A stretch of 64,000 bases of DNA from Candidatus Omnitrophota bacterium (GTDB lineage Bacteria > Omnitrophota > Gorgyraeia > Duberdicusellales > 4484-171), in assembly GCA_014729775.1 (NCBI GenBank), contig WJJJ01000025.1:53790-117789 (forward strand). The letters are read 5' to 3'. Positions 3 to 31,381 of the stretch are shown here, in pieces (the stretch's first letter is position 1; each line of letters opens with the position of its first letter). The notes beneath the pieces were generated by a model. The model ran no database searches and was not told where the DNA came from. It saw only the letters and a program-made list of their open reading frames with translations. The translations under genes were made by a program, and so were the position numbers.

Positions 3-1742
3 CATGCCGGAGCGGTGCTGTTCCTCGTCCATTTCGGTCTTCAGGCTTTTCTGGGATACGGCGCGCTGTTCCGCGCTTACCGCGCGGAAACCAACCTCAC
101 CCGCAAAAAGCAGATCGGTCTTATCGGGATCGCGAACGTGATCGGATTTACTGCTGCGGCGGATTTCCTGCCGAAATTCTTCCACGTTCCGCTTTATCCT
201 TACGGATATGTATCTCTGCTGGTGTTCATTGCACTGGTCGGGTATTCGATCGTCCGTTACAGAGCGTTCGATATCGAAACGGTGATTCATAAAACCGTGA
301 TGTGGATCGGCACCTCGCTGCTGGTGCTGATCCCCCTGGTTGGGGTGTACGCCTGGATGTTTCCCTTCTTAAAGGATTTCTTGTATTTACAGGTAGCCTT
401 TCTCTTGGGCGCGTTATTTTTATTCGCGTTTTATCTCCGGATCGTGCAGCCGCGGATCGACCGTCTTTTCCAGCGGCACAAGGCGAATCTTGAGCAGATC
501 GCCACGCGTTTTTCGGAAAATCTGGTGCATCTTCGGGGGGTGGTACCCGTACTCTCCCGGATTAAGGACACGATTCGCGAAGGAGTGAACGCGACAAGGA
601 CCGATATTTACCTTTGGGACGAGGATCGGAAGCGTTATGTTGATTCTGACGATTTCACCCATATTTTGCGTTTTTCCGGCGATACCCGTTTTTTCTCATG
701 GCTGGCAGAAACAAACCGGACTCTTTACCGTGAATTCACCGATATCGATCCTTTTTCCGCGCGGCTCCGCGATGAGGCGAAAGAATGTTTCCATGCCTCC
801 GGCGCGACGGTATTACTGCCGCTTGTAGTCAACGAAAAACTGCTGGGCTGTATCGCGCTGGGCAAGAAAGAAAATTTAAGAAGATACAGCGCCGCGGATT
901 TCTCTTTTCTGAATATGCTGAAAAACCAGTCGGCGATCGCCCTTTCCAATTCACTGCTGTATGAGAATATCGAAAAGCAGGTACGGGAAAAAACCAGGGA
1001 ACTGGTGGATGTGCAAAAACAGCTGATCCAGGCCGAAAAGCTGGCCACGGTCGGCACCTTGGCCGGGGGAGTGGCGCACGAGATCAATAATCCGCTTACC
1101 GCCGTTTTGACCAACGTGCAGATGCTCCTGGCAGCTCCGGAAGGAATGAACGAAACCGATCTGGAATCGCTGCAATTGATCGAGGAAGCGACGAAACGGT
1201 GCCGGAACATCGTGCAGAAACTGATGACTTACGCCAAGAAGCCCATGGAATCGGGTACATGGTCGATGGTGGATCTTTCTTCCGCGGTAGACAGAGTCAT
1301 GGCGTTTGTCGGATATCAACTTCAGCAGGAGAACATCAATTTACGCGTGCAGGTCGTTCCCGGAACGTATCCGGTCAACGGGAATCAGAATGAAATCGAG
1401 CAGGTATTGACGAATCTTATTTTAAACGCCCGTGACGCGATCAAATCCGCGCGGCGCAAAGGGAATATCGAAATACGCCTGTCCCGGGAAAACGACGCCA
1501 GCTGTATATCGGTGAGAGACGAGGGGCCGGGCATCAAGCCGGCGCTGATATCAAAAATATTCGACCCGTTTTTTACTACGAAAGACGTGGGGAAAGGTCT
1601 GGGACTGGGACTTTCCATTTGTCAGTCCATCGTTGAGCAGCACCGGGGCCGTATTGAAGTTTCTTCGCGTCCGGGACAGGGTACGGAGTTTCGGGTGTTT
1701 TTCCCGATACATACCGAAAAAGGTCTTATTCCCGAAAAATGA
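3..1742 (+). CDS. sensor histidine kinase, 5'-truncated at window edge (polytopic membrane sensor + GAF-like + HisKA + HATPase_c)
   Basis: The reading frame stays open back to nt 3 and the track 'M' at 15 is GTG. Multiple TM helices; H-box 'HEINNPLT'; G-boxes 'DEGPGI' and 'GKGLGLGLSI'. Confidence 0.85.
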   Translation, partial: HAGAVLFLVHFGLQAFLGYGALFRAYRAETNLTRKKQIGLIGIANVIGFTAAADFLPKFFHVPLYPYGYVSLLVFIALVGYSIVRYRAFDIETVIHKTVMWIGTSLLVLIPLVGVYAWMFPFLKDFLYLQVAFLLGALFLFAFYLRIVQPRIDRLFQRHKANLEQIATRFSENLVHLRGVVPVLSRIKDTIREGVNATRTDIYLWDEDRKRYVDSDDFTHILRFSGDTRFFSWLAETNRTLYREFTDIDPFSARLRDEAKECFHASGATVLLPLVVNEKLLGCIALGKKENLRRYSAADFSFLNMLKNQSAIALSNSLLYENIEKQVREKTRELVDVQKQLIQAEKLATVGTLAGGVAHEINNPLTAVLTNVQMLLAAPEGMNETDLESLQLIEEATKRCRNIVQKLMTYAKKPMESGTWSMVDLSSAVDRVMAFVGYQLQQENINLRVQVVPGTYPVNGNQNEIEQVLTNLILNARDAIKSARRKGNIEIRLSRENDASCISVRDEGPGIKPALISKIFDPFFTTKDVGKGLGLGLSICQSIVEQHRGRIEVSSRPGQGTEFRVFFPIHTEKGLIPEK

Positions 1743-1755
1743 AAAAGGAGTAGCG

Positions 1756-2139
1756 ATGAATAAAATACTTGTAGTCGACGATGATCCGTTAGTCGTCAGA
1801 ACGCTCAAAAATGTCCTGGAACGTGAAGGGTACGCGGTTGAGGCGGTAAAAAACGCCTATGAGGCGGTCGATCGCGGAACGGGAGCTGATATCGATTTGA
1901 TTGTTTGTGATATTCGACTTCCCCAGATGAGTGGCATCGAGCTTATCGGGAAGGTGAAGCAGATGCGGAGTGAGGAGGGAAAACGCGAGGTGCCGGTGAT
2001 TTTCATTACCGGTTACGCTTCCGCCGAAGCGCCTGATCAGGCGCGGGATTTGGGCGGAAAAGCATATCTGTTTAAACCTTTTGATTTAGACAGTTTGCTC
2101 GAGGCGATCCGGACGCATCTGTTTCGCCGGAATGAATGA
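1756..2139 (+). CDS. single-domain response regulator (CheY-like receiver)
   Basis: ATG at 1756 with RBS 'aaaggag' 6 nt upstream. 'ILVVDDDP' acidic pocket, phospho-Asp in 'LIVCDIRLP', conserved 'KPF'. Immediately downstream of the HK. Confidence 0.9.
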   Translation: MNKILVVDDDPLVVRTLKNVLEREGYAVEAVKNAYEAVDRGTGADIDLIVCDIRLPQMSGIELIGKVKQMRSEEGKREVPVIFITGYASAEAPDQARDLGGKAYLFKPFDLDSLLEAIRTHLFRRNE

Positions 2140-3023
2140 AACGCGCAGCCGAGGCGCACAGGAATAGAAAGGATAAGGGAGAGCCGCTGCCGCGGCGTTC
2201 CCGGACGGTCCTACCAGGCGGACAGAAGATACTGTCGAAAGCGGCCGTACGTCTGCGGGTGCGCTACCGGTTCTACCGGCGCATGTGGTTCAAAACCATA
2301 CGGCTGGCTACCTTTTTTTTCTTTCGGCTCTGGATAAAAGAACTGGAGGGATTCGACCGTATTCCGGAAGGCCGTTCGGCACTGCTGGTATCGAATCATC
2401 TCAGTTATTATGATTTTCTGATTTTGGGAGCGTTATTCCGGCATCATATCGTTTTTCTCGCGGTGAATAAAATCAGGGCAACTCCGTTTATTCGTTGGTT
2501 TACGAAACTTCATTTTGTGGTGTATGTCGACCGGGACCATCCCGGGCCCGTCTTCTTCAAACAGGTAATGAGGCATATTCAGGCGGGGAAATTGATCGTG
2601 GTGTATCCGGAAGGTTCACGGTCCCGGACGGGGAAAATGCTTCGGCCGAAACCGGGATTCGTGAAGCTCGCGATGCGTGCCAATATTCCGATCATTCCGG
2701 TAGCGATGCGGGGTACCTACGAAATTCTTCCCCCCCAGCGAAAAATCCCGCGGTTCAGGAAATGTGCGGTGCGGGTAGGGAACAGAATGTATATTTCACC
2801 AAATAATCCTGAATTCACGGACGTATTTTTCGCCGAGCCGCGGGAAAAGATCAGCGATCTAAGTAAGGAACAAATTGAAGAGGTCGCGGTGCGGGTCATG
2901 GAAAAGGTCCGTATGCTGGCCGGAGAAGAATGGGATGAACGCGCGGCCGACCAGGTTCGCCGGGTACTCGATCCGGCTCCGGCCGGGGAGGAAGGTGACC
3001 GCAACCCCGGTACGGAATCATGA
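2136..3023 (+). CDS. plsC: 1-acyl-sn-glycerol-3-phosphate acyltransferase (PlsC/LPLAT family)
   Basis: HX4D motif 'NHLSYYD', 'VYPEGSRSRTG' and 'IPIIPVA' blocks typical of PlsC. ATGA start/stop overlap with the upstream RR. Confidence 0.8.
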   Translation: MKRAAEAHRNRKDKGEPLPRRSRTVLPGGQKILSKAAVRLRVRYRFYRRMWFKTIRLATFFFFRLWIKELEGFDRIPEGRSALLVSNHLSYYDFLILGALFRHHIVFLAVNKIRATPFIRWFTKLHFVVYVDRDHPGPVFFKQVMRHIQAGKLIVVYPEGSRSRTGKMLRPKPGFVKLAMRANIPIIPVAMRGTYEILPPQRKIPRFRKCAVRVGNRMYISPNNPEFTDVFFAEPREKISDLSKEQIEEVAVRVMEKVRMLAGEEWDERAADQVRRVLDPAPAGEEGDRNPGTES

Positions 3024-3164: not shown

Positions 3165-3839
3165 ATGACTACCGTGTTTCAACCGCATGAACTGCTGGTG
3201 GTTTTTGACGTCGACAACGTGATTATTCCGGGTCAGACTCAGAAGTGTTTTTTGGGGAAACTTCTGCGGGCAGGGGATGTATCCTTGTTCTCGTTTTCTG
3301 TGGTGTGCTCATGGTTTTTGTTGTATAAGGCGGGGATTACAGTGAATACACAGAGAATTCGGCGCTACGCCTACAGGCAGTTAGCCGGGAAGCGATCCGC
3401 GAATCTCCGCCAGCTGTGCGCGGATCTTTTCCAGTCAGAGCTGCGGCCAAAAATTTTTCCGGCCGCGATGAAGAAAATCGCGTCCTACCGCGACCGCGGA
3501 GCTACCGTTATTTTAATGTCCTCCTCATTACGCGAAATCGTGGAAAGAATTCAAGAATATATCGGCGTGGAGACATGCATCGCAACGAATTTAGAAGTGC
3601 GCAACGGCAGTTACACCGGGGAGATCCAGGGAGGAGTTCCCTATGGAGAGGGAAAAGTGCACAAGCTCCAGGAATTTATCGCAGAGAACGGTCCTTACAG
3701 GAAAATTATTGCGTATTGCGATCACGATTCCGATCTTCCTCTGCTGGAGTACGTGCATGAACCGATCATAGTCAATCCTAATAAAAGAATGCGGCGTCTT
3801 GCCGAGGAAAGGAGATGGAGAGTTGAACAACATACATGA
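3165..3839 (+). CDS. HAD-IB family hydrolase (phosphoserine-phosphatase-like)
   Basis: HAD motif I 'VVFDVDNVII', C-terminal 'CDHDSDLPLL' motif IV. About 224 aa, typical for HAD-IB. Confidence 0.7.
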   Translation: MTTVFQPHELLVVFDVDNVIIPGQTQKCFLGKLLRAGDVSLFSFSVVCSWFLLYKAGITVNTQRIRRYAYRQLAGKRSANLRQLCADLFQSELRPKIFPAAMKKIASYRDRGATVILMSSSLREIVERIQEYIGVETCIATNLEVRNGSYTGEIQGGVPYGEGKVHKLQEFIAENGPYRKIIAYCDHDSDLPLLEYVHEPIIVNPNKRMRRLAEERRWRVEQHT

Positions 3840-3849
3840 TCTGCATCTG

Positions 3850-6012
3850 ATGGAAGTAATGTACATTTTCTCGTCTATGCTTACGGGACTGGGCAGTATT
3901 GCGCTTGGGGTATTCGCGGTAATCGCAGGCAAGAAGTCTTCGGTGAACATAAGGTATTTTCTTATGAGCGTGTGCGTGGCACTTTGGTCGTCGGGCTTGT
4001 TTTTCTGTCACTGGTTTGCCCGGCTGCCGCTTTCCCTCTACTGGAACCGGTTTGGTCATGCCGCCGCTGCGTTTATTCCGGTGACTTTCTTCCACTTTAT
4101 TCTTGTGCTGGTCAAACGAACGGACAAGAAAAAAATTCTTCTTTTAGGCTACGGCGCTTCTTTTCTGATCGCGTTATCTTCTTTTACGACTCTCTTGATT
4201 CGCGATATGCGTCCCAATGCCTGGTTTACGTTATGGCCGCAACCGGGGATCTTATACCCTGCGTTCATATTATTGTTCGGTTTTTATGCAGTCTATTCAT
4301 TCGCGCTGGGTTTCCAGCGCTATCAAATGACCAGTGGATTTCAAAGAGAACAGTTGAAATATATTCTTGTGGGAATGGTCGTTGGTTTCGGAGGAGGGGC
4401 AACCAATTACCCGTTATTCTATGATTTGAAAATTCCACCGGTCGGTAATTTCTTTATCTTCAGCTATATTCTCATGTACGCCTACGCCATTCTGCGTTAT
4501 CGGTTAATGGACGTGCATCTGGCCGTTTCCCGCACCACGCTGGGGTTGGGAATCTACACGCTGGTGTTCGGAATCCCTTTTTACGCGGGGTTCGTGACCG
4601 ATTCTTGGATGTTTTCGACCTCGCTCGCCGTGATTCTGGCCATACCGGCGCCCTTCATGTACCGCTATTTTCGCGGGAGGACCGAAAGGATTCTTTTAGC
4701 CGAGCAGCGTCACTATCAGAGAGTTTTGCTGCGCGCGGCCAGCGGCATGGTTCGCGAACACAATCTGGAGAAGCTGTACCGTCTGGTGGTATATGTGGTG
4801 AAAAAAGCGGTAAAAATCCGGTGGGTGGCGCTGTGTATTCGCGATGATGAAGGGGGTCCGTATCGATTGAAGAATTTTCGCAACGGCGGAGGGCAGCGGC
4901 CGTCGGCCGAGTATCCCGCCGAGCATCCGCTGCTGCGCTTTCTCGACGAAAAAAGGGAACCCGTGGTGTATGAAGAACTGCCGCAAGGTCTGCGCCGCAG
5001 CGTGGATTTTCCGGAAAAGGTCGGTCTTTTGATCCCTTCTTTTGTGGAAGACCGTCTGCTCGGTTTTTTGATCCTGGGTGAAAAAATGAACGGGAAGGCC
5101 TATTCGGCCGACGATATCAACGTGTTTAAGATCCTGGCGCATCAGGCCGCGCTGTCGATCGAGAACTGTCTGTTTTTCGATGAATTCAAAAAGGTCCAGG
5201 AACGAATTTTCACGGCTGAAAAGCTGGCGTCGGTGGGAGGCATGGCCGACGGGGTTGCTCATCAGATCAAGAACCGGCTCAATCATTTTTCGGTCGCCGC
5301 CGGAGAGCTTAAGTATGAAATCCAGGACGTGCGCGAGAAGTTTCCCGAAATGTGCGAGAACGAACCCAAAATCGCGAAATCGCTCGACTATCTCACGGAT
5401 ATCGCGGAATCTCTGATTGATAACGTGAAACGGACCGACGGCGTGATACGGGGAATTCTTTCTTTCGCCCGTACCGAAGAAAAGGAAACGTTTTTCTCCC
5501 ACTTCTCCTTCACGGAAACCGTCGAGTTATCGCTGGAACTGCTGAAGATTAAACATCAGGTGTCTCATTTTCCGCTTAAAACGAATATCTTAGGTGGGGA
5601 TATGATATACGGAGTAAAATCTCAGATCATGGAGGCGGTGTACAATCTTCTGGATAACGCCTATGAAGCAATACAGGATAAAATGAATTATCATCTTGAT
5701 GAAACACAGAAAAAAGAATTTAGGCCGCAGGTGAGGATTGAACTGGCAGAGAACCACGAAATGAACAAAATTACGGTGAGTGATAACGGAATCGGCATTA
5801 AAACGGTTGACAGAAATAAAATTTTCGCGCCGTTTTTCACGACCAAATCCTCGTTTAAATCAGGAACCGGGATCGGGATGTACGTGGTCAAACGGATGGT
5901 GGAAGAAAATCACGGCGGCCGGATATGGTGTACCTCAGAGTTCATGGAAGGAACGCGCATGCATATGGAACTTCCCAAGGCACCTTCGTCCGAAAACGAA
6001 GAGAGGGCGTGA
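3850..6012 (+). CDS. sensor histidine kinase (7-8 TM sensor domain + GAF-like + HisKA + HATPase_c)
   Basis: ATG at 3850; the ORF-track start at 3799 is TTG and overlaps the HAD gene. TM-rich N-terminal ~290 aa paralogous to HK 3..1742 ('RYRLMDVHLAVSRT' vs 'RYRAFDIETVIHKT'). H-box 'VAHQIKNRLNHF'; G-boxes 'SDNGIGI' and 'GTGIGMYVVKR'. Confidence 0.85.
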   Translation: MEVMYIFSSMLTGLGSIALGVFAVIAGKKSSVNIRYFLMSVCVALWSSGLFFCHWFARLPLSLYWNRFGHAAAAFIPVTFFHFILVLVKRTDKKKILLLGYGASFLIALSSFTTLLIRDMRPNAWFTLWPQPGILYPAFILLFGFYAVYSFALGFQRYQMTSGFQREQLKYILVGMVVGFGGGATNYPLFYDLKIPPVGNFFIFSYILMYAYAILRYRLMDVHLAVSRTTLGLGIYTLVFGIPFYAGFVTDSWMFSTSLAVILAIPAPFMYRYFRGRTERILLAEQRHYQRVLLRAASGMVREHNLEKLYRLVVYVVKKAVKIRWVALCIRDDEGGPYRLKNFRNGGGQRPSAEYPAEHPLLRFLDEKREPVVYEELPQGLRRSVDFPEKVGLLIPSFVEDRLLGFLILGEKMNGKAYSADDINVFKILAHQAALSIENCLFFDEFKKVQERIFTAEKLASVGGMADGVAHQIKNRLNHFSVAAGELKYEIQDVREKFPEMCENEPKIAKSLDYLTDIAESLIDNVKRTDGVIRGILSFARTEEKETFFSHFSFTETVELSLELLKIKHQVSHFPLKTNILGGDMIYGVKSQIMEAVYNLLDNAYEAIQDKMNYHLDETQKKEFRPQVRIELAENHEMNKITVSDNGIGIKTVDRNKIFAPFFTTKSSFKSGTGIGMYVVKRMVEENHGGRIWCTSEFMEGTRMHMELPKAPSSENEERA

Positions 6013-6069: not shown

Positions 6070-7419
6070 ATGAGCAAAAAGAAGATTCATGAACGCCGGA
6101 GGTTTCCGCGGGTACGCGCCGCATGGCGCGTTCGGGGTGCCTCGGGCGTGCGCGGCAGTACGGTGGACGTGAGCGAATCCGGCGCGCGGATCGTATTTTC
6201 CCGGCCGCTCTGCGATTCTTCTTTGACCCTGGACCTCGTACTGCCGGACGGAACCGAGGTATTGTCCCTTTGCGTCCGAATCGTCCGCGAAGTCCCCGGC
6301 CTTCGGGAGGAATACGCGTTCCGTCTGATCGATTGTACCGGAACCCAGCGCCGTGCGCTTCGTCGCGCGCTGCTGGCTCAGCAGGTGCACATTGTGCTCA
6401 GTGACATTGACGAGGTGTCTGTCCGGGAACAAATAGAAAAATTTTTTCTCCGGGATCTGCTCGAGTATCTTCATTTGGCCGCGTCCTTCGAAGAGTCACT
6501 GGGGAGGGACTCTGATCCTGCCGGAATCGTTCCGGCGCTTGAACGGGCCCATAACGCGTTGATGCTGAAAGGGTATTGTTTGGAATTGCTTCTTTCCGGT
6601 GAATCCGCTCTGGTGAAACGGGTAAAGGAGTATTTCCAAAAATGGACTGCGCCATGGACGGCGCAAAGCGCGATCATGCGCTGGGCATTGGAAAAACCCC
6701 GGGGAATTCCCGGGGATTATCGGATATTGGAGTACATCTACGAGGATCGCGTTGTTTCTGAGGGGATCGGCCGTTATTTCGATTCGTTGTTCTTACGCAG
6801 TCCCTATGCGGTCGCGATGCGTCTGCGTAAAGACCGGATACTGGCATTGCTGCAGGAATATCTTTCCGCGCTCCCTCCCCTGAAAGAAGCAAAAGTATTA
6901 AATATCGCTTGCGGTTCATCTCGCGAAGTGAGAGAATTAGTAGCTCACGCCGCGGTGCCGTGTAAATTGAAAATTACCTGTATGGACTGGGATTGGGAAG
7001 CGCTCCGTTTTTCGCGGGAGAAATGCGCCGCGCCCGGAAACCGGGTCCGTTGCGGATACGTGAGGGAAGATGTCATTCGGATCGTGCGGAATAAAGTTCC
7101 GCTGTATTCATACGGAGTCCAGGATATTATTTTTTGCGCAGAACTTCCCAATTATCTTCCGGACCGGGTGATGAAAAAGCTGCTGCACCGGGTATATCCG
7201 CTTTTAGAGAGGGGAGGAAAGTTCCTGTTTACCCACAAAAACCGCGAAAAAACTTATCCTCCGTTGTTCCCTGACTGGTTCTGTGACTGGCGGATGATAC
7301 CCCGCACTCCGGAAGAGGTCGTTGAGGTGTGTCACCGTTGCGGCATCCCCCGCGGCGCGCTGAAAGTCGAGCCGGGGGTATTCGGATACGTGTATTTCTT
7401 TACGGTGACCAAGAAATAG
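6070..7419 (+). CDS. PilZ-domain protein fused to a predicted class I SAM-dependent methyltransferase
   Basis: N-terminus 'RRRFPRVRAAWRV...DVSESGARIV' matches the PilZ RxxxR and DxSxxG motifs. C-terminal half has MTase-like motif I 'VLNIACGSSREV', 'ITCMDWD' and motif II-like 'DIIFCAELPNYLPD'. Confidence 0.6.
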   Translation: MSKKKIHERRRFPRVRAAWRVRGASGVRGSTVDVSESGARIVFSRPLCDSSLTLDLVLPDGTEVLSLCVRIVREVPGLREEYAFRLIDCTGTQRRALRRALLAQQVHIVLSDIDEVSVREQIEKFFLRDLLEYLHLAASFEESLGRDSDPAGIVPALERAHNALMLKGYCLELLLSGESALVKRVKEYFQKWTAPWTAQSAIMRWALEKPRGIPGDYRILEYIYEDRVVSEGIGRYFDSLFLRSPYAVAMRLRKDRILALLQEYLSALPPLKEAKVLNIACGSSREVRELVAHAAVPCKLKITCMDWDWEALRFSREKCAAPGNRVRCGYVREDVIRIVRNKVPLYSYGVQDIIFCAELPNYLPDRVMKKLLHRVYPLLERGGKFLFTHKNREKTYPPLFPDWFCDWRMIPRTPEEVVEVCHRCGIPRGALKVEPGVFGYVYFFTVTKK

Positions 7420-11021: not shown

Positions 11022-12027
11022 ACGGAGCGGGGGACATTTATTTCCCGCGTTGAGTCTGGCCCGGGAAATGCGCCGAAGAGACACGGGGTATCCGGTGTTT
11101 TTCGTCACGTCGGCGCAGTTGAAGCTTTTGATCCGGCGTGAGAATTTCCCCGTGTATGGGCGCGGTTTTCGGCGGCGGAATTTAATCCTGGAATTATGCT
11201 ATCGCTTTTGGGAGGCGCCGCTCCTTTTGTGCCGCTGCCGGCCGGCGAAGGTGTTTGGATTCGGCGGGAGGGACAGTTTTTTTCTCATGCTTTGGGCTGT
11301 CCTGCTGCGCATGGGCCCGGTACTCTATGAACCGAATTCGGTTTTCGGCCGGGCCAATAAGATTCTTTCGCCCTTTATGAAACGCAATTTTTGCGGTTTC
11401 AGGCCGCTTTGCCGGGGACGGCACATTGTTTGTGCCGGGATCCCCGTCCGCGATGATCTTCAAAAGCTCCCGGCGGGGGAGGCGAAAGAAAAGCTTGGTT
11501 TTGGGGCCGATGCGGTGGTGCTTACGGTTTGCGGAGGGAGTCAGGGCTCTCAATTCCTGAATGATCTTATGATGAAACTGGCGCTTGTCATTCCGTCACA
11601 CGTGAAAATCGTACACATCACGGGCCGTCGGGGATATACGGAAACCAGGAAATTTTACGAGAGGACGGCAGTCAGGGCGCGGGTGTTGGATTTTTGTACC
11701 GATATGAGCACGGTATATTCAGCGACGGATGTGATCATATCGCGAAGCGGCGCGATGACCTTAGGGGAAATTATTTATTTTCAAATTCCTCCGGTCTTTA
11801 TCCCGCATCCCGGCGGTTTTTCCCATCAATACCGCAACGCGGATTTTCTCCAGCAGCGAAACGCCGCCGCGGTTTTTCGGCAGAATGAGATCGATTTTCA
11901 GCAGTTTACTGATGCCGTGTCCGAATTATTAACTAACCCTTTGCCGCGGAAGAGGATGGCCGAGCAGCTCGCTGCCGTGCAGACGGCAGTATCTGCGCGG
12001 AAGTTTTATGATCGGGTGTTTGAATGA
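10978..12027 (+). CDS. murG: UDP-GlcNAc--N-acetylmuramyl-(pentapeptide)-PP-undecaprenol GlcNAc transferase
   Basis: GT28 fold; N-terminal G-loop is degenerate ('ERSGGHLFPALSLA' instead of 'GGTGGH'). 44-nt overlap with ftsW. Confidence 0.85.
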   Translation: MRRERTHHITLFVCERSGGHLFPALSLAREMRRRDTGYPVFFVTSAQLKLLIRRENFPVYGRGFRRRNLILELCYRFWEAPLLLCRCRPAKVFGFGGRDSFFLMLWAVLLRMGPVLYEPNSVFGRANKILSPFMKRNFCGFRPLCRGRHIVCAGIPVRDDLQKLPAGEAKEKLGFGADAVVLTVCGGSQGSQFLNDLMMKLALVIPSHVKIVHITGRRGYTETRKFYERTAVRARVLDFCTDMSTVYSATDVIISRSGAMTLGEIIYFQIPPVFIPHPGGFSHQYRNADFLQQRNAAAVFRQNEIDFQQFTDAVSELLTNPLPRKRMAEQLAAVQTAVSARKFYDRVFE

Positions 12028-12851
12028 GAAAAAAAACGACGTGTATCGCATTGGTGGTATGTCTGTGCAGTGCCTGCGGGGGCGCCCCTGTCCTGGCGGA
12101 TGCGCCGCCGATGCCCGATGTGTCTCTTTCCGGCACGGAAGAAGAGTTTTCCCAGAAGCGCTCGGAACATTTCATCGTCTATTACGATCCGGAAGTCAGC
12201 GAAGCGGCCGCGCGCAAAATCAGCGCGATGGCCGAACGGTATTACCGTTCCATTACCCAGGAGTTCCGGCTGATTCGGGAAGATCTTTGGCTGTGGGATA
12301 ACCGGGCGCGAATTTACGTGGCGAAAGACCGGGGAGAATATCTGCGCAGATTCCGCTGTCAGCAGTGGTCGGCGGCCTGCGTGGATTACCGCTCAAAGAA
12401 GATTTTCACTTATCCGTCACAAAATGATTTTTCGGGATTGCTGCTGCATGAGTTAACCCACATTATATTCCGGGAGTACGTCGGACACCGGCGTCTGCCT
12501 TTATGGATCGATGAAGGCGTGGCTACGTACATGGAATACAAAAATTCTCCCTCCGGAGACCGGCTGCTGCGAATGACAGAGGAGATGGTACGGGAAGACG
12601 CCTATATTCCTTTCCGCCGGATCCAGGCGATGTCGCGCCTGAGTAAGTCCGGTCGGGCAGCGCGCCGATTTTATGCGCAGTCCTACAGCATGATCGTGTT
12701 CCTCCGTCAATTTGGAAGTCATTATTTTAAGCCTTTCCTTTCCGCCCTGAAACGGGGCGAATCAGTCGGTGATTCATTAGGAAGTTCCTACCGCTCGTTA
12801 CGGTCGATCGAACAATTTGAAAAAGCATGGAAGAGACATTACCAAAAGTAA
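12024..12851 (+). CDS. secreted/lipoprotein gluzincin-like putative metallopeptidase (Peptidase_MA_2-like)
   Basis: Signal peptide with Cys-rich lipobox-like 'LCSACGG'. 'HELTH' zinc motif followed by 'EGVATYMEY' (third-ligand Glu pattern of Peptidase_MA_2). ATGA overlap with the murG stop. Confidence 0.55.
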   Translation: MRKKTTCIALVVCLCSACGGAPVLADAPPMPDVSLSGTEEEFSQKRSEHFIVYYDPEVSEAAARKISAMAERYYRSITQEFRLIREDLWLWDNRARIYVAKDRGEYLRRFRCQQWSAACVDYRSKKIFTYPSQNDFSGLLLHELTHIIFREYVGHRRLPLWIDEGVATYMEYKNSPSGDRLLRMTEEMVREDAYIPFRRIQAMSRLSKSGRAARRFYAQSYSMIVFLRQFGSHYFKPFLSALKRGESVGDSLGSSYRSLRSIEQFEKAWKRHYQK

Positions 12852-18005: not shown

Positions 18006-19937
18006 ATGAAATACCTCGAACAGATTGAACAATTTCTGAAAATGCTGAAAATCGGACTCACCCACGCGAGCATGTACTTTACCGAGCATCCGATCTATCA
18101 AAAAACCGTTCGGGAAGTGCACAGGGAGCTTCAGCAGGTACTGCGTGAAAAGAACCCTCTTCTCATCGGAGTCTCGCCCGATGCGCTGATCATCGACAAT
18201 CATGAATGGAAGAATTCCCGATTAACCGAGGATCTGGCGGTTTTTTTTCATACCCGCATGGTGAGCCGGATCGAATTCGTCGACGGAATAACAGAACAGG
18301 AGCTCCACACCTTTCTCTCGTATGTCTCCCTTTCGGCGCAGGAAATTTTAAGCCTGGGCGGCCTCGGAAAAATCTTCGAGGAAAAACAAGTCGCTCACGT
18401 CCATGTGTCTGATCTCGATTATTCTCACCTGCTGAAAAATGCGGGAGTGTACCATAAAGATATTTGGAAATATCTGCTCCGCAGCGCGGCCCGGAGCCAG
18501 AAGGACGAAGAAATGAAGGCGCTGATCGATAATTTTGAAACCGTCGTGAGTTCCCTCGGAAAGGAATTATTTCAAGAAGCAGAGTGCCGGGCTCAGCTCC
18601 GGGTTTTTTTGACGCACTTAAGCAAGAGTCAAAAAAGTACGTTAAAACAGTGCAGTAAGACCATCCTTCAGTATCTTTTGAGAGACCGCGATGCGGTTGA
18701 GGGTAAAATCCCGGTTGAGGATCTCCGAAATTTTCTCACCGTATTGTCGGATGCTGAATCAGCGGATATCCTGTGGGATGAGATCGCAAAAGGTCCTGAT
18801 TTTGATGCGAGTGCTTTTTCGTTCTTTCTGACCCTCTTGAGTTCGAAAAATCACGAGATTATCGCGGACAAAGTGCTGCACCGTTTGGATTCGGTGTCGA
18901 CCGAGAAAAAGCATCAAATGAAGTCCAGACTCGAAGATTTGTTTTCAACCGCGTTTTCTTCCGGCCCGCGGGAAGCCAGCCAGGTGTATCAGGAAGCGTT
19001 GTCCGCGATGTTTGAGGCGATGTCCGATGAGGGGCGATGGGTGTTTGACCGCGAGAATGCGCGCAAGAACTACCGGTATATTCTGCTGGCGCTGCTCGAT
19101 GAGAAAAAAAAATCCGAACAGATGCGGCGGATCGCGGAGAAGATTTCCGCGGAGACGATACACGCATTCGAAATTCGCGACCGCGGATATCTGGCGGCCT
19201 GTTTCTCTCTGCTCAAAAGGAAAGACGATTCCTTTCGGTCTGAACTGCAGGAAGGGCTGCGCGGGCTCGATGAATTCCTGGAAACAAAAGTGCTCCAAGG
19301 AGAGTATCCTTCCGGAATGGAACGCTATCTTTCCCGGCTAAAAAAAAGTTCCTATGGTCCGCGGACATACATTCAGAAAATCACCCAGGCTTCTTCTGTG
19401 TCCCCCGCGCTGCTCGATGCGTTTCTCCGCTTTTATCCGGGCGAGACCGGGAGACTGCTGGAAGAAGTGAAGACTCGGCAGGCACAGGCTTCTTACATGA
19501 CTTCGCTGGCGGAATCGGCCGCGGCGGCGGATTCCCCTTCGAGCCTGCGTATGCTGTGCGGGCTTTACCGCGATGCGCGGCTCTATCTGCGGCGGGTGAT
19601 TCTCCGGGTGATGCGCCGAATGAAACAATACGATATTGATTTTCTCTTTGAGGTTCTTTCTGGTTCAGAAGTTTTTCTCAAACGGGAGGCGCTGGCGATA
19701 CTTGCAGGTATACCCGGCGCGCGGGCACGCGCCGCGGAGATTTTATTTCGCGTCCCGAATCCGTTTGGTATCCGGGAGAATCTCCTCAGTTCCCATATCG
19801 CGCTCGCCGATGAATTTTCGCTTTCCGAGGCCCGGCCTTACCTGGAAAAATTATCGGGCCAGCTGTGGTTCTGGCATAATAAAACGAAACGGCACGCGCA
19901 GGAAGTGCTGCGTAAATGGCATGAAAAATCAGATTGA
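18006..19937 (+). CDS. hypothetical protein: HD-GYP-associated N-terminal (DUF3391-like) domain + long alpha-helical/HEAT-like C-terminus, no catalytic domain
   Basis: First ~130 aa align with the N-terminus of the downstream HD-GYP protein ('MYFTEHPIYQKTVREVHRELQQVL' vs 'MYTPEHKRFIEAVDGAYMELQKIL'; 'RIEFVDGITEQELHTF' vs 'KITFVRGVDKDELASA'). The remainder is helical, with 'ALAILAGIPGARARAAEILF' HEAT-like repeats. Confidence 0.6.
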   Translation: MKYLEQIEQFLKMLKIGLTHASMYFTEHPIYQKTVREVHRELQQVLREKNPLLIGVSPDALIIDNHEWKNSRLTEDLAVFFHTRMVSRIEFVDGITEQELHTFLSYVSLSAQEILSLGGLGKIFEEKQVAHVHVSDLDYSHLLKNAGVYHKDIWKYLLRSAARSQKDEEMKALIDNFETVVSSLGKELFQEAECRAQLRVFLTHLSKSQKSTLKQCSKTILQYLLRDRDAVEGKIPVEDLRNFLTVLSDAESADILWDEIAKGPDFDASAFSFFLTLLSSKNHEIIADKVLHRLDSVSTEKKHQMKSRLEDLFSTAFSSGPREASQVYQEALSAMFEAMSDEGRWVFDRENARKNYRYILLALLDEKKKSEQMRRIAEKISAETIHAFEIRDRGYLAACFSLLKRKDDSFRSELQEGLRGLDEFLETKVLQGEYPSGMERYLSRLKKSSYGPRTYIQKITQASSVSPALLDAFLRFYPGETGRLLEEVKTRQAQASYMTSLAESAAAADSPSSLRMLCGLYRDARLYLRRVILRVMRRMKQYDIDFLFEVLSGSEVFLKREALAILAGIPGARARAAEILFRVPNPFGIRENLLSSHIALADEFSLSEARPYLEKLSGQLWFWHNKTKRHAQEVLRKWHEKSD

Positions 19938-21243
19938 AAAATTCGTCAGAAGTATCTTCGCCGTGTTCCAGATCACGCAGATGTACACGCCGGAGCATAA
20001 AAGATTCATTGAGGCGGTGGATGGCGCGTACATGGAGCTGCAGAAAATTCTGCAGACCAGAGAGGACGTGACGGTAGGCATCGTGGGCGAGGAATTTACT
20101 ACAGGTGACGTAATACTGTTTGATCTGAGCAAAAAAACGAAGTCGTTTATCGTTTTTTTGAAAGACCGGGGCATTGAAAAGATCACTTTTGTCAGGGGTG
20201 TTGACAAAGATGAACTGGCGTCAGCGATCACGGCGATCTTCACCGTCGATCCTCATTCCGAAGCGGATATGCAAAAGGTGCTGGTTACGGAGGGGATTAC
20301 TCACATTAAAACGGGTACGATCAGCGCACCGCGTGATGAAGGGAAAAAGGTGTTTGCCCAGGAATACCATAACGCGTTGGAATCGGTCCGCAGCGCCCTG
20401 GGCAACATGCTTGAAGGCAAGGAGGTGAATGCGCTGGATCTGAAGTATTCGCTCGCCCATTTCGCGGAAAATATTCAGGTATGGCACAAGGAGTTTCGCA
20501 GGCTCCTGGCGGTCAAACAGCATGATCTGGGTACATTTTCACATATTCTCAATGTCGCGATCCTTTCGGTGTACTTTTCGGCCTGTCTCGGCTTTCGAAA
20601 GAATGACATGACCGAAATCGGAATTGCCGCACTGTTTCATGATATCGGCAAACAGTATATCTCGCGGTATATCATCAAGAAAACCCGCCGACTCACCGAT
20701 GAGGAATTCAAACAAATACAAAGTCACACCGTGCTGGGAGCAAACCTCCTCCTTCCTTATGAACCGGTGCTGGGTTTTCTCCCGGTCGTCGTCTGTTTCG
20801 AACATCATTTAGGGTATGACCGGCAGGGCTATCCCCGAACGCCGTACAACCGGCATCCGCATATCGCCTCTCAAATCGTGACGATATGCGATGTGTATGA
20901 CGCGCTGATGCAGAGACGGTCTTATAAGCGGGATTATCCTCCCCGATTTATTTACGATCTTATGATGCGCGATAAGGGACGGCAATTTCACCCGCTGCTC
21001 ATAGAGAAATTTTTTCAGTTCATGGGAATTTGGGCGGTGGGCACGATCGTGGAACTGAATGATAAGCGTGTCGGGATCGTACGCCGGGAAAATCAGGGGG
21101 ATATCCGCTCTCCCTGGGTGCAAATAATTTCGCCGGCACCTGAAAAGGAGCTTTTGAATCTTGAAAAAGAGACGCCCCGGCTCTATATCCAGAAAGCGCT
21201 GAATCCCATGAAGGAAGGGAAGCGATACCTTTCTTTCTTGTAG
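19921..21243 (+). CDS. HD-GYP domain c-di-GMP phosphodiesterase with DUF3391-like N-terminal domain
   Basis: ATG at 19921 (17-nt overlap with the upstream gene). HD motif 'LFHDIGK', 'FEHHLGYDRQGYPRT' (HD-GYP signature), 'CDVYDALMQRRSYK'. Confidence 0.85.
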   Translation: MKNQIEKFVRSIFAVFQITQMYTPEHKRFIEAVDGAYMELQKILQTREDVTVGIVGEEFTTGDVILFDLSKKTKSFIVFLKDRGIEKITFVRGVDKDELASAITAIFTVDPHSEADMQKVLVTEGITHIKTGTISAPRDEGKKVFAQEYHNALESVRSALGNMLEGKEVNALDLKYSLAHFAENIQVWHKEFRRLLAVKQHDLGTFSHILNVAILSVYFSACLGFRKNDMTEIGIAALFHDIGKQYISRYIIKKTRRLTDEEFKQIQSHTVLGANLLLPYEPVLGFLPVVVCFEHHLGYDRQGYPRTPYNRHPHIASQIVTICDVYDALMQRRSYKRDYPPRFIYDLMMRDKGRQFHPLLIEKFFQFMGIWAVGTIVELNDKRVGIVRRENQGDIRSPWVQIISPAPEKELLNLEKETPRLYIQKALNPMKEGKRYLSFL

Positions 21244-21258
21244 AACCCGGAGAAAAGG

Positions 21259-21287
21259 TTTGCCGGGCGTACTAAATATGATATATT
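21259..21287 (+). promoter_or_regulatory. sigma70-like promoter TTTGCC-N17-TATATT placing TSS at or next to the RR start codon (leaderless candidate)
   Basis: 'tttgcc' 21259-64, 17-nt spacer, 'tatatt' 21282-87; the RR ATG is at 21295. Confidence 0.3.
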
Positions 21288-21294
21288 GTATACC

Positions 21295-21663
21295 ATGAAC
21301 GCCGCGCAAAAACCAGTGTTGGTAGTCGATGACGAAAAAGAAATCGTTGATTTCCTTGAGAAGTTCATTTCCCGGTTCGGGTATAGGGTCGAAAAGGTGA
21401 CCAGCGGGGAAGCCGCACTCGCGTTCATTGAATCGCACGGCGCACGCTGTGTGTTCTTGGACATACAAATGGGAGGGGTCGATGGTATCGAAGTACTGCG
21501 CCGGATCAAGAAAACGTATCCCGATATCACCGTAATCATGATTACCGGTAAGGCAGAAAAAGAGGTTCAGACGAAAGCAAAACGATACGGAGCCGCTACC
21601 TATATTACCAAACCCCTGGATCTGGAAGATTTGAGCCGGAGAATTAAGGAATATCTAGTATAA
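21295..21663 (+). CDS. single-domain response regulator (CheY-like)
   Basis: 'VLVVDDEKEIVDF', phospho-Asp in 'VFLDIQMGG', 'TKPL'. ATG at 21295; the track start at 21286 is TTG. Confidence 0.85.
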   Translation: MNAAQKPVLVVDDEKEIVDFLEKFISRFGYRVEKVTSGEAALAFIESHGARCVFLDIQMGGVDGIEVLRRIKKTYPDITVIMITGKAEKEVQTKAKRYGAATYITKPLDLEDLSRRIKEYLV

Positions 21664-21681
21664 CTTCAATTCGAACCCCAG

Positions 21682-22860
21682 ATGACCGTCGATTACCAGC
21701 AAGATCTCGAAAAAGCCGCGCGCCAGATGATTCTGATTCATCGCTCGAGTACTCTGACCCGGCTTATTCTGCGTACGATCGTTGCGAAAGTAAAGGTGGA
21801 ACACGCAGGCTTGTTTATATACGACAAACAGCGGGACGAATATGTGGTCAAAGTTTCCCGGGGAGCCACGGGAATGAAAATTCCTTCCGGATTCGTGAAA
21901 ATATCGCAGGAAAATTCGCTCATAAGGTATTTTCGCGAGCCTTCCCTGCCCTATCCCAAAGACAGTATTCTCTGGTCGTCCTTGAACGGATATCTCCGAT
22001 CAGCGAAACGCCGGAAGAACGAGGAATTAGTGAATTTTTTGGAAGATCTGCGGATGACCTTGTCTTTATACCAAGCCCGTGCATGCGTGCCGGGATTCTT
22101 CCGTAAGGAACTGGTCGGCGTGCTTTTTTTAGGGGAGAAGACCGATCAACAGGGACTCTCCAAGGAAGAACTGGGATATCTTTCCGTCCTCGCCTCGGAC
22201 GTCGTGATGGCGATCAAGAATGCCTGGTTGATCGAGGATCTCAATCAACAGGTCGAAGTGAATAAGCGGCTGTTCGTACAGACGGTTTCGGCGCTGGCTT
22301 CGAGCATTGAAGCGAAAGACATGTATACGATCGGCCACACTGAACGGGTCGTGGAGAAAAGTCTGGAGATCGCCCGGCAGATGCGGCGGCGCAAAAGGAT
22401 CCGGAATTGGGAATCGTTTTTGGAGAATTTGAGGGTAGCGGCGCTGCTTCACGATATCGGAAAAATCGGCATACCGGAAAAGATCCTGAATAAAAAGAAG
22501 TGGCTCAACGAAAAGGAGCGGGGCGTGATTGAAAGGCATCCTCTCATCGGAGCCAAGATCCTGCAGCAGGTGGAGGAAATGAAAGATGCGCTCTTGGGCG
22601 TAAAGCACCACCATGAACGCTACGATGGAAAAGGGTATCCTTCCGGATTGCGGGGAAAAGAAATCCCCCTTACTGCGGCGATAATCGCGGTCGCCGATTC
22701 GTTTGACGCGATGATTATCGACCGGCCGTACCGAAAGGGCCTCCGGCTCAGCGAAGCTTTGGAGGAGATCCGCAAGAACCGGGGTAAGCAGTTCGCGCCG
22801 GCCGTCGTCGATGCCTTTTTGTCCTTGTACGCGGTCCCGGCAAAAAAGAAAAGAAAATGA
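21682..22860 (+). CDS. GAF-like + HD-GYP domain protein (c-di-GMP phosphodiesterase)
   Basis: 'GHTERVVEKSLEIA', 'LLHDIGKIGIPE', 'HHHERYDGKGYPSGL', 'ADSFDAMIIDRPYRK'. Confidence 0.85.
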   Translation: MTVDYQQDLEKAARQMILIHRSSTLTRLILRTIVAKVKVEHAGLFIYDKQRDEYVVKVSRGATGMKIPSGFVKISQENSLIRYFREPSLPYPKDSILWSSLNGYLRSAKRRKNEELVNFLEDLRMTLSLYQARACVPGFFRKELVGVLFLGEKTDQQGLSKEELGYLSVLASDVVMAIKNAWLIEDLNQQVEVNKRLFVQTVSALASSIEAKDMYTIGHTERVVEKSLEIARQMRRRKRIRNWESFLENLRVAALLHDIGKIGIPEKILNKKKWLNEKERGVIERHPLIGAKILQQVEEMKDALLGVKHHHERYDGKGYPSGLRGKEIPLTAAIIAVADSFDAMIIDRPYRKGLRLSEALEEIRKNRGKQFAPAVVDAFLSLYAVPAKKKRK

Positions 22861-24020
22861 GATCCGCTGTTGAGAATACGCAGGGGGATACCGCAAAAAA
22901 GAAACGAAGCATCATTGTGTTTTATATTTCCGAATTCGGCGGGCACAGCCGGGCTGCCAAGAATATCCGCGAAGCGCTGCTCATGCGGGATCCCGGCCTG
23001 GCTGTCCACAGGATCAACGGGGCAAAATATTTTTATCCCGTATGGGAGCGTATCGTCGATTTTATCTATACCCGCGTCATCGTCCATTCGCCGCATTTGT
23101 GGGGCAGGGTATATGACCGGGAAAAAGTCATTCGCCGTCTTTCCCCGGTACGAAGGGTCGTAAACCGTTTGGCATTCGGAAAGGTGAAACGGCTGCTGCG
23201 CCGGAAAAGGCCCGATTGCATCGTGGCGACCCAGGCGTTTCCCTGCGGAGTGATTGCCGATTACAAACTTGCTTACGAAGTAGATGTTCCGCTGATCGCG
23301 GTGGTGACCGATTATTATCCTCATCGCTTCTGGGTGCACCCGGCCATCACCCATTATGTGGTGGCCTGCCCGGAAGCCAAGGATATTTTGTGCCGGGAAG
23401 GGGTTCCGGAAGAAAAAATCAAGATTCTGGGAATTCCGATTTCGGTGAAGTTTCTCCAGTCATTCTCAAAGGAAGCGGTTGCTCGTGCCTACGGATTCAA
23501 TCCCCACCTGCCCTCGCTGCTGCTCATGGGCGGAGGATTAGGACTTGGCCCTTTGAAAATGATTGCCGGCGATATCGATTCTCTCCCGTATGAGTTTCAA
23601 ATTATTGTGGTGTGCGGACGCAATCACGGGCTCTATCAGTGGTTTTGCTCGCGCCGGAGAAAATTCCGTAAGCCGGTATATTGTTTTCGGTACGTTGATT
23701 TCGTGCATGAATTGATGGATTTCGCCGACATTATCGTGACCAAAGGAGGGGGGATTACCGTGTCGGAAGCCCTGGCAAAAGGACTTGCGATGCTGATTAC
23801 CAATCCGATTCCGGGTCAGGAAGAACGCAATGTTGCCTATCTGGCGCGTACCCAGGCGGTTTTGCGGATGCGGAATCCTCAAGAGATCGCCGAGGCCGTG
23901 CAACGGCTGTTTACCGAAAAAGGGGAATTGTACCGTCTTAAGGAACGGGCTAAGGATATCGCGGTGATTGATTCATCCGTACGAATCGTTGATCTGATAT
24001 TGAGCGAATTGCGGGGATAA
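22857..24020 (+). CDS. diacylglycerol glycosyltransferase, MGDG-synthase/UgtP-like (GT28 family)
   Basis: N-terminal 'IIVFYISEFGGHSRAAKNIREAL' MGDG_synth-type domain plus C-terminal GT-B domain ('VTKGGGITVSEALAKGLAMLI'). ATGA overlap with the upstream gene. Confidence 0.7.
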   Translation: MRSAVENTQGDTAKKKRSIIVFYISEFGGHSRAAKNIREALLMRDPGLAVHRINGAKYFYPVWERIVDFIYTRVIVHSPHLWGRVYDREKVIRRLSPVRRVVNRLAFGKVKRLLRRKRPDCIVATQAFPCGVIADYKLAYEVDVPLIAVVTDYYPHRFWVHPAITHYVVACPEAKDILCREGVPEEKIKILGIPISVKFLQSFSKEAVARAYGFNPHLPSLLLMGGGLGLGPLKMIAGDIDSLPYEFQIIVVCGRNHGLYQWFCSRRRKFRKPVYCFRYVDFVHELMDFADIIVTKGGGITVSEALAKGLAMLITNPIPGQEERNVAYLARTQAVLRMRNPQEIAEAVQRLFTEKGELYRLKERAKDIAVIDSSVRIVDLILSELRG

Positions 24021-24026
24021 CCGGCT

Positions 24027-31309: not shown

Positions 31310-31381
31310 TGCCCGGTAGTGTAATTGGCAACACATCAGATTTTGGTTCTGACGTTCCTGGTTCGAGTCCAGGCCGGGCAG
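31310..31381 (+). tRNA. tRNA-Gln (anticodon UUG)
   Basis: Manually folded cloverleaf: acceptor TGCCCGG/CCGGGCA (U1-A72 as in bacterial tRNA-Gln), D-stem GTGT/ACAC, anticodon stem TCAGA/TCTGA with loop TTTTGGT (anticodon TTG), T-arm CCTGG-TTCGAGT-CCAGG. No encoded CCA. Confidence 0.8.

Follow-up and report, generated by a model that had tools for sequence, protein, structure and literature searches.

Conserved PilZ-methyltransferase fusions of Omnitrophota as candidate lipid-type O-methyltransferases under c-di-GMP and phosphorelay control

Introduction

Few effectors of c-di-GMP (cyclic dimeric GMP) carry an enzymatic output in the same polypeptide, and BcsA is the main example. Published lists of PilZ fusions comprise REC, GGDEF, EAL, HD-GYP, MCP, CheC, BcsA, Alg44 and a kinase; a review states that PilZ domains inside fusion proteins retain c-di-GMP binding, and some PilZ domains have lost it. 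The C-terminal helix of PilZ is the surface that contacts the partner in MapZ-CheR1 and in BcsA. Earlier links between methyltransferases and c-di-GMP run through separate adaptors or through direct binding without PilZ: CheR1 is acted on in trans by MapZ and HemK likewise by N5MapZ, whereas RlmI is itself bound by c-di-GMP. In the present study, we analysed a stretch of 64,000 nucleotides from a Candidatus Omnitrophota bacterium (assembly GCA_014729775.1, contig WJJJ01000025.1, positions 53,790 to 117,789), hereafter called the window, and focused on a gene whose product joins an N-terminal PilZ domain to a methyltransferase dependent on S-adenosylmethionine (SAM). Omnitrophota is a phylum of very small, largely uncultured bacteria.

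Two other described systems bear on this gene. A ComFB-CheR fusion has been reported in Omnitrophota, and PhcB of Ralstonia solanacearum makes methyl 3-hydroxymyristate or methyl 3-hydroxypalmitate, an ester that is sensed by PhcS; the N-terminal part of PhcB, outside the annotated methyltransferase domain, holds an adaptive mutation, R22C. In our literature search, no paper describing a PilZ-methyltransferase fusion was found. A first-pass annotation of the window, made by reading the sequence, had stated that a c-di-GMP-gated methyltransferase is not a characterised effector class; this holds for the fusion in a single polypeptide, of which we found no description, but not for the control of methyltransferases by c-di-GMP, for which MapZ-CheR1, N5MapZ-HemK and RlmI are precedents. 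The novel part is the use of PilZ as the input of an enzyme with a new output, together with a new conserved three-gene module. Our preferred reading, to which we give a probability of roughly one half on the basis of sequences and predicted structures, is that the gene may encode a lipid-type O-methyltransferase gated by both c-di-GMP and a phosphorelay.

Results

Architecture and fold of the fusion protein

The gene and its parts are as follows.

6070 to 7419, plus strand: PilZ-methyltransferase gene, 449 amino acids, intact open reading frame with ATG start (Pfam; AlphaFold)
6091 to 6372, plus strand: PilZ domain, residues 8-101, six-stranded beta-barrel (Pfam, 34.9 bits; structure matches)
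6097 to 6111, plus strand: RxxxR motif, R10-R-F-P-R14, the first c-di-GMP-binding motif (conservation in relatives)
6166 to 6183, plus strand: D33-V-S35-E-S-G38 motif (conservation in relatives)
6340 to 6399, plus strand: Arg-rich C-terminal helix of PilZ, residues 91-110, leading straight into the methyltransferase cap (DSSP)
6415 to 6870, plus strand: predicted helical cap, residues 116-267, with K209-P-R-G-x-P-G-D-Y and R251/R253/K254 (AlphaFold helices; conservation)
6886 to 7413, plus strand: predicted Rossmann SAM-binding domain, residues 273-448, with VLNIACGSSRE (G282, R285), D306/D308 and the W403/C405/W407/R412 loop

The open reading frame begins at the first possible ATG, and a longer upstream start is impossible. 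The PilZ assignment made in the first-pass annotation was borne out by the Pfam search, in which PF07238 matched with an E-value of 2e-08 and 34.9 bits against a gathering score of 22.5 and was covered from position 1 to 100 of its 102 positions. The two signature motifs named there are also in place, RRRFPR providing R10xxxR14 at the N-terminal edge of PilZ and DVSESG providing D33xS35xxG38 on the barrel, the latter in agreement with the refined [D/N]hSxxG motif. When the N-domain was modelled alone with AlphaFold (mean pLDDT, the predicted local distance difference test, 84.7), the top 41 matches in the PDB were PilZ structures without exception, including BcsA, Alg44 with c-di-GMP, MotI, YcgR and MapZ, with TM-scores of 0.6-0.7 and with BcsA and Alg44 as the best structural matches. 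The N-terminus bearing RxxxR is flexible in the models (pLDDT 41-56), and L97 and R98 in the C-terminal helix are invariant across the family alignment. We regard the N-domain as a canonical PilZ of the c-di-GMP type, for which binding is predicted from the motifs and the fold.

The C-terminal part is predicted to be a class I SAM-dependent methyltransferase with a helical cap. The AlphaFold model of the whole protein, built on 30 homologues (pLDDT 85.5, predicted TM-score 0.82), consists of six beta-strands and a long helix (residues 15-110), then a bundle of helices (116-267) and lastly a Rossmann fold (273-448), and this fold is of the Rossmann-like seven-strand type that is characteristic of class I enzymes. 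Both halves were thus folded confidently and matched PilZ and Rossmann methyltransferase structures, respectively. Two Pfam families exceeded their gathering scores, namely Methyltransf_25 (30.2 bits against 27, residues 276-383) and Methyltransf_20 (PF12147; 22.1 bits against 21, residues 219-295, covering only profile positions 78-156 of 309), and partial matches to the latter recur in many relatives. These matches and the predicted fold support the earlier assignment of a class I methyltransferase, and the motif I-like segment, ITCMDWD and DIIFCAELPNYLPD are all present as that annotation quoted them. Motif I, VLNIACGSSRE, is a variant in which A-C-G-S-S replaces G-x-G-x-G; D306, within ITCMDWD, ends strand beta2, and the other quoted segment follows strand beta4. 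G282 is kept in 182 of 183 relatives and D306 in 181 of 183. The basic or aromatic residues invariant throughout the family are K209, R251, R253, R285, K390, W403, W407 and R412, which would suit an anionic, hydrophobic substrate.

In structure searches, the C-terminal half resembled small-molecule and polyketide methyltransferases having an N-terminal helical domain: 3ocj, SgvM, SibL, CmoA, CurJ, the C-methyltransferase of the citrinin polyketide synthase (PKS) and plant O-methyltransferases. When the PDB was searched by sequence, using as queries the single protein and two profiles, only the generic Rossmann core was reached; the best profile match was juvenile hormone acid O-methyltransferase (E-value 0.0013), and the sequence match to 3ocj, a Bordetella parapertussis protein of unknown function, was insignificant (E-value 0.32). 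The CheR family (PF01739), judged by its HMM and by its characteristic N-terminal and beta-subdomain architecture, was tried as a candidate and rejected, with a Pfam E-value of 0.073 over 36 residues and with CheR absent among the structure matches listed.

Conservation of the family

The fusion of PilZ and methyltransferase is a conserved family of hundreds of sequence clusters. A first homologue search against 5.8 billion proteins gave 37 relatives, about 30 of them full-length and of the same architecture; the best was only 40% identical, and the named ones came from metagenome-assembled genomes of Candidatus Omnitrophota. A profile search against 1.84 billion cluster representatives gave 6141 matches, including 728 representatives at an E-value of 1e-30 or lower. 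Among the best matches, we found PilZ-methyltransferases of about 450 residues, methyltransferases alone of about 350 residues that start at the helical cap (profile positions of about 100-125), PilZ-PilZ-methyltransferases (P0044, P0053, P0054 and P0083) and REC-PilZ-methyltransferases (P0045 and P0085, the PilZ part of P0085 appearing degenerate). The databases name these relatives 'PilZ domain-containing protein' or 'SAM-dependent methyltransferase', or give them a PhcB name. A scan of one genome per species recovered 27 loci, mostly of Omnitrophota, and when a plasmid collection was queried by tblastn with just the PilZ and cap part, none of its plasmids showed a PilZ-methyltransferase; phcB, a chromosomal gene, is not in that collection.

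[quoted passage not shown] R10, R14, E36 and G38 are invariant in the alignment of 30 full-length homologues (A1), and in a broader set of 99 PilZ-bearing relatives, again mostly from Omnitrophota, R10 is kept in 94 and R14 in all of the 95 that align there, D or N occupies position 33 in 96, S35 is found in 71 and G38 in 97; about 95% keep both arginines, and both motifs are fully canonical in 68. Loss of RxxxR and DxSxxG in orthologs, named in the first-pass annotation as a finding that would speak against a PilZ receptor, was thus not observed.

Other relatives deviate at the N-terminus. A second family member in the Omnitrophota chromosome that is the closest relative of the window (L001, 4056-5414), located directly after genes for a REC-fused ketosynthase and an acyl carrier protein (ACP), has a PilZ-like region in which both c-di-GMP motifs are lost. 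In P0113, of 558 residues, an N-terminal extension of 200 residues (1-200) replaces PilZ; we considered a GNAT-type N-acyl synthase for this extension and dropped the candidate, as there was no Pfam or NCBIfam match.

Constant genomic partners

For the analysis of neighbours, open reading frames were called and clustered in 32 non-redundant loci. Only two partner families recurred: a histidine kinase of about 720 residues with HisKA_7TM and GAF domains, the former standing for a seven-transmembrane (7TM) sensor, and a single-domain receiver of about 125 residues with the signature ITGYAD...YLYKPF. Counting direct adjacency to the methyltransferase gene on the same strand, the kinase was found in 19 loci, the receiver in 18 and one or both in 27; the 7TM-GAF kinase and the single-domain receiver are therefore the constant genomic partners of the fusion. 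Some loci repeat the module, for example in the order methyltransferase, kinase, receiver, methyltransferase, and a distant group of PilZ-methyltransferases (P0037) adjoins a different hybrid kinase of the MASE8-PAS type. In the natural REC-PilZ-methyltransferase fusions the REC part is 45-47% identical to the receivers encoded beside the unfused genes, and by the Rosetta-stone argument these fusions indicate that the receiver would act directly on the enzyme.

Receiver domains are fused to other enzymes as well. A beta-ketoacyl synthase in L001 (2217-3824) and a 4HBT-type thioesterase in another locus (L002, 993-1865) each carry one, an arrangement suggesting that enzymes of the fatty-acid or polyketide type are placed directly under a phosphorelay.

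Leads to the substrate

The first-pass annotation had remarked that nothing in the sequence tells the substrate. We do not agree with this, because the family and its genomic contexts point to small molecules of the lipid or acyl type, and the leads are four and independent. The first is the naming by JGI: P0187, a PilZ-bearing relative of 41% identity, is called 'extracellular factor (EF) 3-hydroxypalmitic acid methyl ester biosynthesis protein', and a third homologue search, for which relatives from outside Omnitrophota were the queries, showed the same name on 19 of its 30 JGI-named proteins. We take this to be the name under which KEGG lists Ralstonia PhcB. No Ralstonia protein was among the 120 best matches of that search. 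The next lead is a homologous domain (27% identity; Methyltransf_20 positions 77-298) that ends a ketosynthase-ACP-methyltransferase PKS on a plasmid of Enterobacter ludwigii. Another is an operon on a plasmid of Deinococcus actinosclerus (L041, 3347-6705), in which the family methyltransferase comes fourth, behind fatty acid desaturase, FeeM N-acyl amino acid synthase and Methyltransf_23 enzyme; the depositor's name for it, 'chemotaxis protein CheR', is probably a misnomer, and a methylated N-acyl amino acid is the operon's probable product. The remaining lead is the presence of lipid-type genes within 8 kb in about 12 of the 32 loci, namely those for ketosynthase (some REC-fused), ACP, FabA/ApeI-like dehydratase, ketoreductase, aldehyde dehydrogenase, REC-thioesterase and PlsC-like acyltransferase. 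Together the four point to a lipid-like acceptor.

Links to c-di-GMP turnover

Genes of c-di-GMP turnover are often close to the fusion gene. HD-GYP genes lie near the PilZ-methyltransferase in L004, L012 and the window, and in L020, L022 and L023 the distance between a GAF-GGDEF gene and the methyltransferase is 3.5-4 kb.

A similar tendency was found for the relatives without PilZ. On plasmids and chromids of Rhizobiales, methyltransferase-only relatives are 25-30% identical over residues 195-448, and strains of Rhizobium leguminosarum and R. johnstonii including 3841 (H168, plasmid NC_008378.1) carry such a gene. In six of seven Rhizobiales-type contexts the methyltransferase-only gene is divergently paired with a GGDEF-EAL gene of 650-670 residues, and all other neighbours differ. 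The six are Rhizobium leguminosarum, R. phaseoli, R. hidalgonense, Rhizobium sp. Q54, Nitratireductor and 'Roseateles' XES5, with pairs located at L036 3547-6762, L039 2475-5747, L040 3439-7850, L044 1447-4747, L045 1384-4744 and L046 1550-4762; the seventh, Aureimonas, is without the pairing. XES5 is marked UNVERIFIED_ORG in GenBank and classed in Burkholderiales, and its gene neighbourhood is Rhizobium-like; a PAS-GGDEF gene also follows the pair in this organism. The methyltransferase and GGDEF-EAL genes form a conserved two-gene unit, which appears to be undescribed.

The GGDEF-EAL proteins have an N-terminal sensor of five to six membrane helices, which aligns with the membrane domain of the kinase beside a Pseudanabaena copy of the methyltransferase. 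Because the partners across phyla are GGDEF-EAL proteins or kinases, the methyltransferase travels with a polytopic membrane sensor, the output of which is either phosphorylation or c-di-GMP turnover. We also asked whether the 7TM sensor of Omnitrophota is related to the Rhizobiales and Pseudanabaena sensor, and found no detectable relation (hhalign probability 0.5).

The locus in the window

Upstream of the PilZ-methyltransferase gene, the window contains the following genes.

15 to 1742, plus strand: second kinase of the same family, cut by the window start (GAF, HisKA and HATPase_c; tblastn match to the kinase at 3799-6012, including its membrane region)
1756 to 2139, plus strand: single-domain receiver REC1 of the methyltransferase-associated family (translation; signature ITGYA...YLFKPF)
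2136 to 3023, plus strand: PlsC-like acyltransferase (Pfam, NCBIfam)
3165 to 3839, plus strand: HAD-IB phosphatase (Pfam, NCBIfam)
3799 to 6012, plus strand: 7TM-GAF histidine kinase directly upstream of the fusion gene (HisKA_7TM, GAF_3, HATPase_c)

REC1 is 48% identical to the receiver encoded directly upstream of the PilZ-methyltransferase in L004; in most relatives the receiver gene sits directly upstream, and in the window it does not. The same acyltransferase cluster is found upstream of a kinase-receiver-methyltransferase string in L012, L019 and L033. Over its full length the upstream kinase matched the PrsK model, but below threshold. Downstream of the fusion gene lies the dcw cell-wall cluster (mraY-murD-ftsW-murG-...-murC), whose genes show synteny with and 50-74% identity to CP070807; the identity to the L001 counterpart is 74% for MraY, 64% for FtsW and 52.5% for the kinase in the equivalent position. 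These values, and the lack of any match to the fusion protein above 40% identity among 5.8 billion proteins, suggest a poorly sampled lineage. The position given in the first-pass annotation, between a sensor kinase and dcw, is thus correct, but dcw is not a conserved neighbour: this adjacency was found in only two of the 32 loci, the window and L001, and is therefore incidental, and a functional link to the dcw cluster was rejected. A peptidase MA-family gene (12024-12851) lies within dcw between murG and murC and is also present in L001 with 47% identity.

About 14 kb downstream of the fusion gene, a string of signalling and glycolipid-type genes follows.

19636 to 21243, plus strand: HD-GYP protein, 535 amino acids (Pfam; HD and GYP motifs checked)
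21286 to 21663, plus strand: receiver (Pfam)
21682 to 22860, plus strand: HD-GYP protein (Pfam; HD and GYP motifs checked)
22857 to 24020, plus strand: glycosyltransferase like monogalactosyldiacylglycerol (MGDG) synthase (Pfam)

The two HD-GYP proteins mentioned in the first-pass annotation could be confirmed here by their HD and GYP motifs, and no GGDEF motif was found within the 64-kb window. In L004, a kinase-receiver-HD-GYP-MGDG synthase string, 40-44% identical to that of the window, stands directly after the PilZ-methyltransferase. Synteny extends over 21286-25000 of the window and 11642-15897 of L004 and comprises the receiver, HD-GYP, MGDG-synthase-like glycosyltransferase, lipid A-type acyltransferase and GT2 genes; this string is a candidate c-di-GMP-regulated glycolipid module. 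The first 290 or so residues of the HD-GYP protein at 19636-21243 are without domain match, and its annotated start is overlapped for about 300 bases by an open reading frame of 643 residues (18006-19937) having no Pfam match.

As to the rest of the window, its G+C content is 52.6%, its sole Rfam match is a single tRNA gene (31310-31381), and on the minus strand at 46493-48261 a spore-photoproduct-lyase-like radical SAM gene adjoins a diacylglycerol kinase gene.

Discussion

Proposed mechanism and its significance

In the mechanism that we propose, the kinase would sense a membrane or envelope cue and phosphorylate the receiver, and the phosphorylated receiver would act directly on the methyltransferase. 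At the same enzyme, c-di-GMP, the level of which would be set by the HD-GYP and GGDEF genes often found nearby, would bind the flexible RxxxR arm and the PilZ barrel, and this binding would reposition the cap that covers the active site via the connecting helix, so that methyl transfer would be switched by two inputs. The acceptor would be an acid or alcohol of lipid-like character, for example a fatty acyl, hydroxy-acyl or N-acyl compound, possibly bound to ACP, and the product a methyl ester that may modify the envelope or serve as a signal. Convergence of phosphorylation and c-di-GMP on one metabolic enzyme would provide a concrete and testable case, and the presence of relatives in culturable Rhizobium strains opens the finding to testing there. 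Were the product a lipid methyl ester of the kind that Ralstonia uses as a quorum signal, this chemistry would extend far beyond Betaproteobacteria and be tied to c-di-GMP.

Evidence against the proposal and alternative explanations

Several points weigh against this proposal. The reading of the family is drawn from the genes themselves, as sequences and predicted structures, and the path by which PilZ would reach the cap, via the connecting helix, is one that we infer. In the substrate assignment, the NCBIfam search of the window protein gave nothing above the cut-offs, no family with a known substrate was matched by sequence and the PDB sequence matches were generic, lipid genes stand near only about one third of the loci, and the link to PhcB comes from names given by the sources, a name not being a test. 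Other points concern the window copy. Of 31 positions conserved to 90% or more in the family, it departs at six (R190Q, Y213I, Y355F, G358E, D361N and F409M), a count that is one in the median member and that ranks the window copy 172 among 178. The protein is 39% identical to the L001 copy at the same position, compared with 50-74% for the neighbouring genes, and the receiver located between kinase and methyltransferase in L001 is missing in the window. Divergence at conserved positions and the lack of an adjacent receiver make the activity of this copy less certain than that of a typical member.

These features of the window copy are also the main ground for an alternative, improbable in our estimation, in which its methyltransferase half has lost or changed catalysis and the protein would mainly serve the upstream kinase as an adaptor or scaffold that depends on c-di-GMP. 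Y355F, G358E and D361N all fall in the motif IV segment, so that DIIFCAELPNYLPD, although present as quoted in the first-pass annotation, is not typical of the family; together with the faster divergence than the neighbours and the missing receiver gene, this outlier status speaks for the alternative, and the existence of paralogues with degenerate PilZ, such as that in L001 at 4056-5414, indicates that domains in this family do decay. G358E is nearly unique, whereas further lineages of the family also show D361N; in the SAM site, G282, R285, E289, D306 and D308 are intact, as is the W403/C405/W407/R412 loop, and so is the open reading frame, whose fold is confidently predicted. The window copy is probably active, and it may have a substrate or an activity shifted from the family norm. 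As for its PilZ half, we think it very improbable that the domain is purely structural or binds another ligand, with no part for c-di-GMP. Loss of binding in some PilZ domains and the lack of a GGDEF gene in the 64-kb window would fit this idea, but both binding motifs are intact and conserved family-wide, fused PilZ domains retain binding according to the review cited above, and several loci have HD-GYP and GGDEF genes in the vicinity of the fusion gene.

The remaining alternatives concern what is methylated. The tight, near-universal adjacency to signalling proteins, and not to metabolic genes, would be expected if the enzyme methylated the neighbouring kinase or receiver in a CheR-like manner for sensory adaptation, tuned by c-di-GMP; PilZ adaptors controlling CheR1 and HemK, the ComFB-CheR fusion in Omnitrophota and the depositor's CheR name for one homologue are in the same direction. 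The Pfam match to CheR is, however, negligible, and relatives occur as the terminal domain of a PKS and beside FeeM, so that this protein methyltransferase looks quite improbable; the predicted structure likewise makes a CheR-like enzyme a poor prospect. A further explanation, unlikely but more probable than the foregoing ones, resembles the Phc system: the methyltransferase would make a diffusible lipid methyl ester, the polytopic kinase would be its receptor, the receiver would feed back and c-di-GMP would gate the synthesis. This is a more specific version of our proposal and does not contradict it. The methyltransferase, membrane kinase and receiver genes form a triad with a layout like that of phcB-phcS-phcR-phcQ, a Ralstonia paper proposes that the PhcQ receiver may modulate PhcB, and JGI puts the PhcB name on relatives; moreover, the Pseudanabaena partner is a kinase of six transmembrane helices with HisKA near residue 230, as in PhcS (His230), and the Rhizobiales partner is a GGDEF-EAL protein of five to six, a pairing that resembles a signal synthase beside its receptor. 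Against these, the putative homology to PhcB and PhcS is a matter of labels and operon layout, the sensor of the Omnitrophota kinase is 7TM-GAF, of the PrsK type, and not detectably related to that of Rhizobiales and Pseudanabaena, and no export or signal-degrading gene was seen; the repeated kinase-receiver-methyltransferase modules that several loci combine with REC-fused ketosynthase and thioesterase look more like a biosynthetic pathway under phosphorelay control than like one pair of signal and receptor. We continue to prefer the lipid-type O-methyltransferase under two inputs. That the kinase, receiver and (PilZ-)methyltransferase amount to Phc-type lipid methyl-ester signalling in Omnitrophota, gated by c-di-GMP through the fused PilZ, is in our opinion doubtful; if true, intracellular second-messenger signalling and intercellular lipid signalling would be coupled in one enzyme. 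Even the whole PhcB-like family may be wired to c-di-GMP, including the Rhizobiales copies paired with GGDEF-EAL, and Ralstonia PhcB itself might be, via the N-terminal region that holds R22C.

Comparison with known systems

Methyltransf_20 and the structure 3ocj share with the window protein a partial Pfam match above threshold, and the PKS of Enterobacter ends in a homologous Methyltransf_20 domain; the difference is that the window protein covers no more than the short internal segment of the profile given above, and that family is without an assigned substrate. To the phcBSRQ system, whose layout is taken from the literature, the window locus is similar in having a SAM methyltransferase gene beside a membrane histidine kinase and receiver-domain proteins, and a membrane sensor kinase, a receiver or both were directly adjacent in 27 of the 32 loci. 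The length is also similar, PhcB having about 467 residues and the window protein 449, and PhcB likewise has an N-terminal part beyond its annotated methyltransferase domain. PhcB has not been described with a PilZ domain or with c-di-GMP control, the partner kinase in the window has a 7TM-GAF sensor, no PhcA-type regulator was seen, and the hosts are Betaproteobacteria in the one case and Omnitrophota in the other.

With regard to c-di-GMP, MapZ-CheR1 of Pseudomonas aeruginosa and N5MapZ-HemK of Xanthomonas citri are alike in that a canonical PilZ relays c-di-GMP to a SAM methyltransferase; there, separate proteins act on protein methyltransferases, whereas the window protein is a fusion in cis with a methyltransferase of the small-molecule type and a different cap. 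BcsA and Alg44 have a canonical PilZ in the same polypeptide as the output, and c-di-GMP is the allosteric switch there; they differ from the window protein in that their output is a glycosyltransferase or a polymerisation complex, and in BcsA the PilZ domain is C-terminal.

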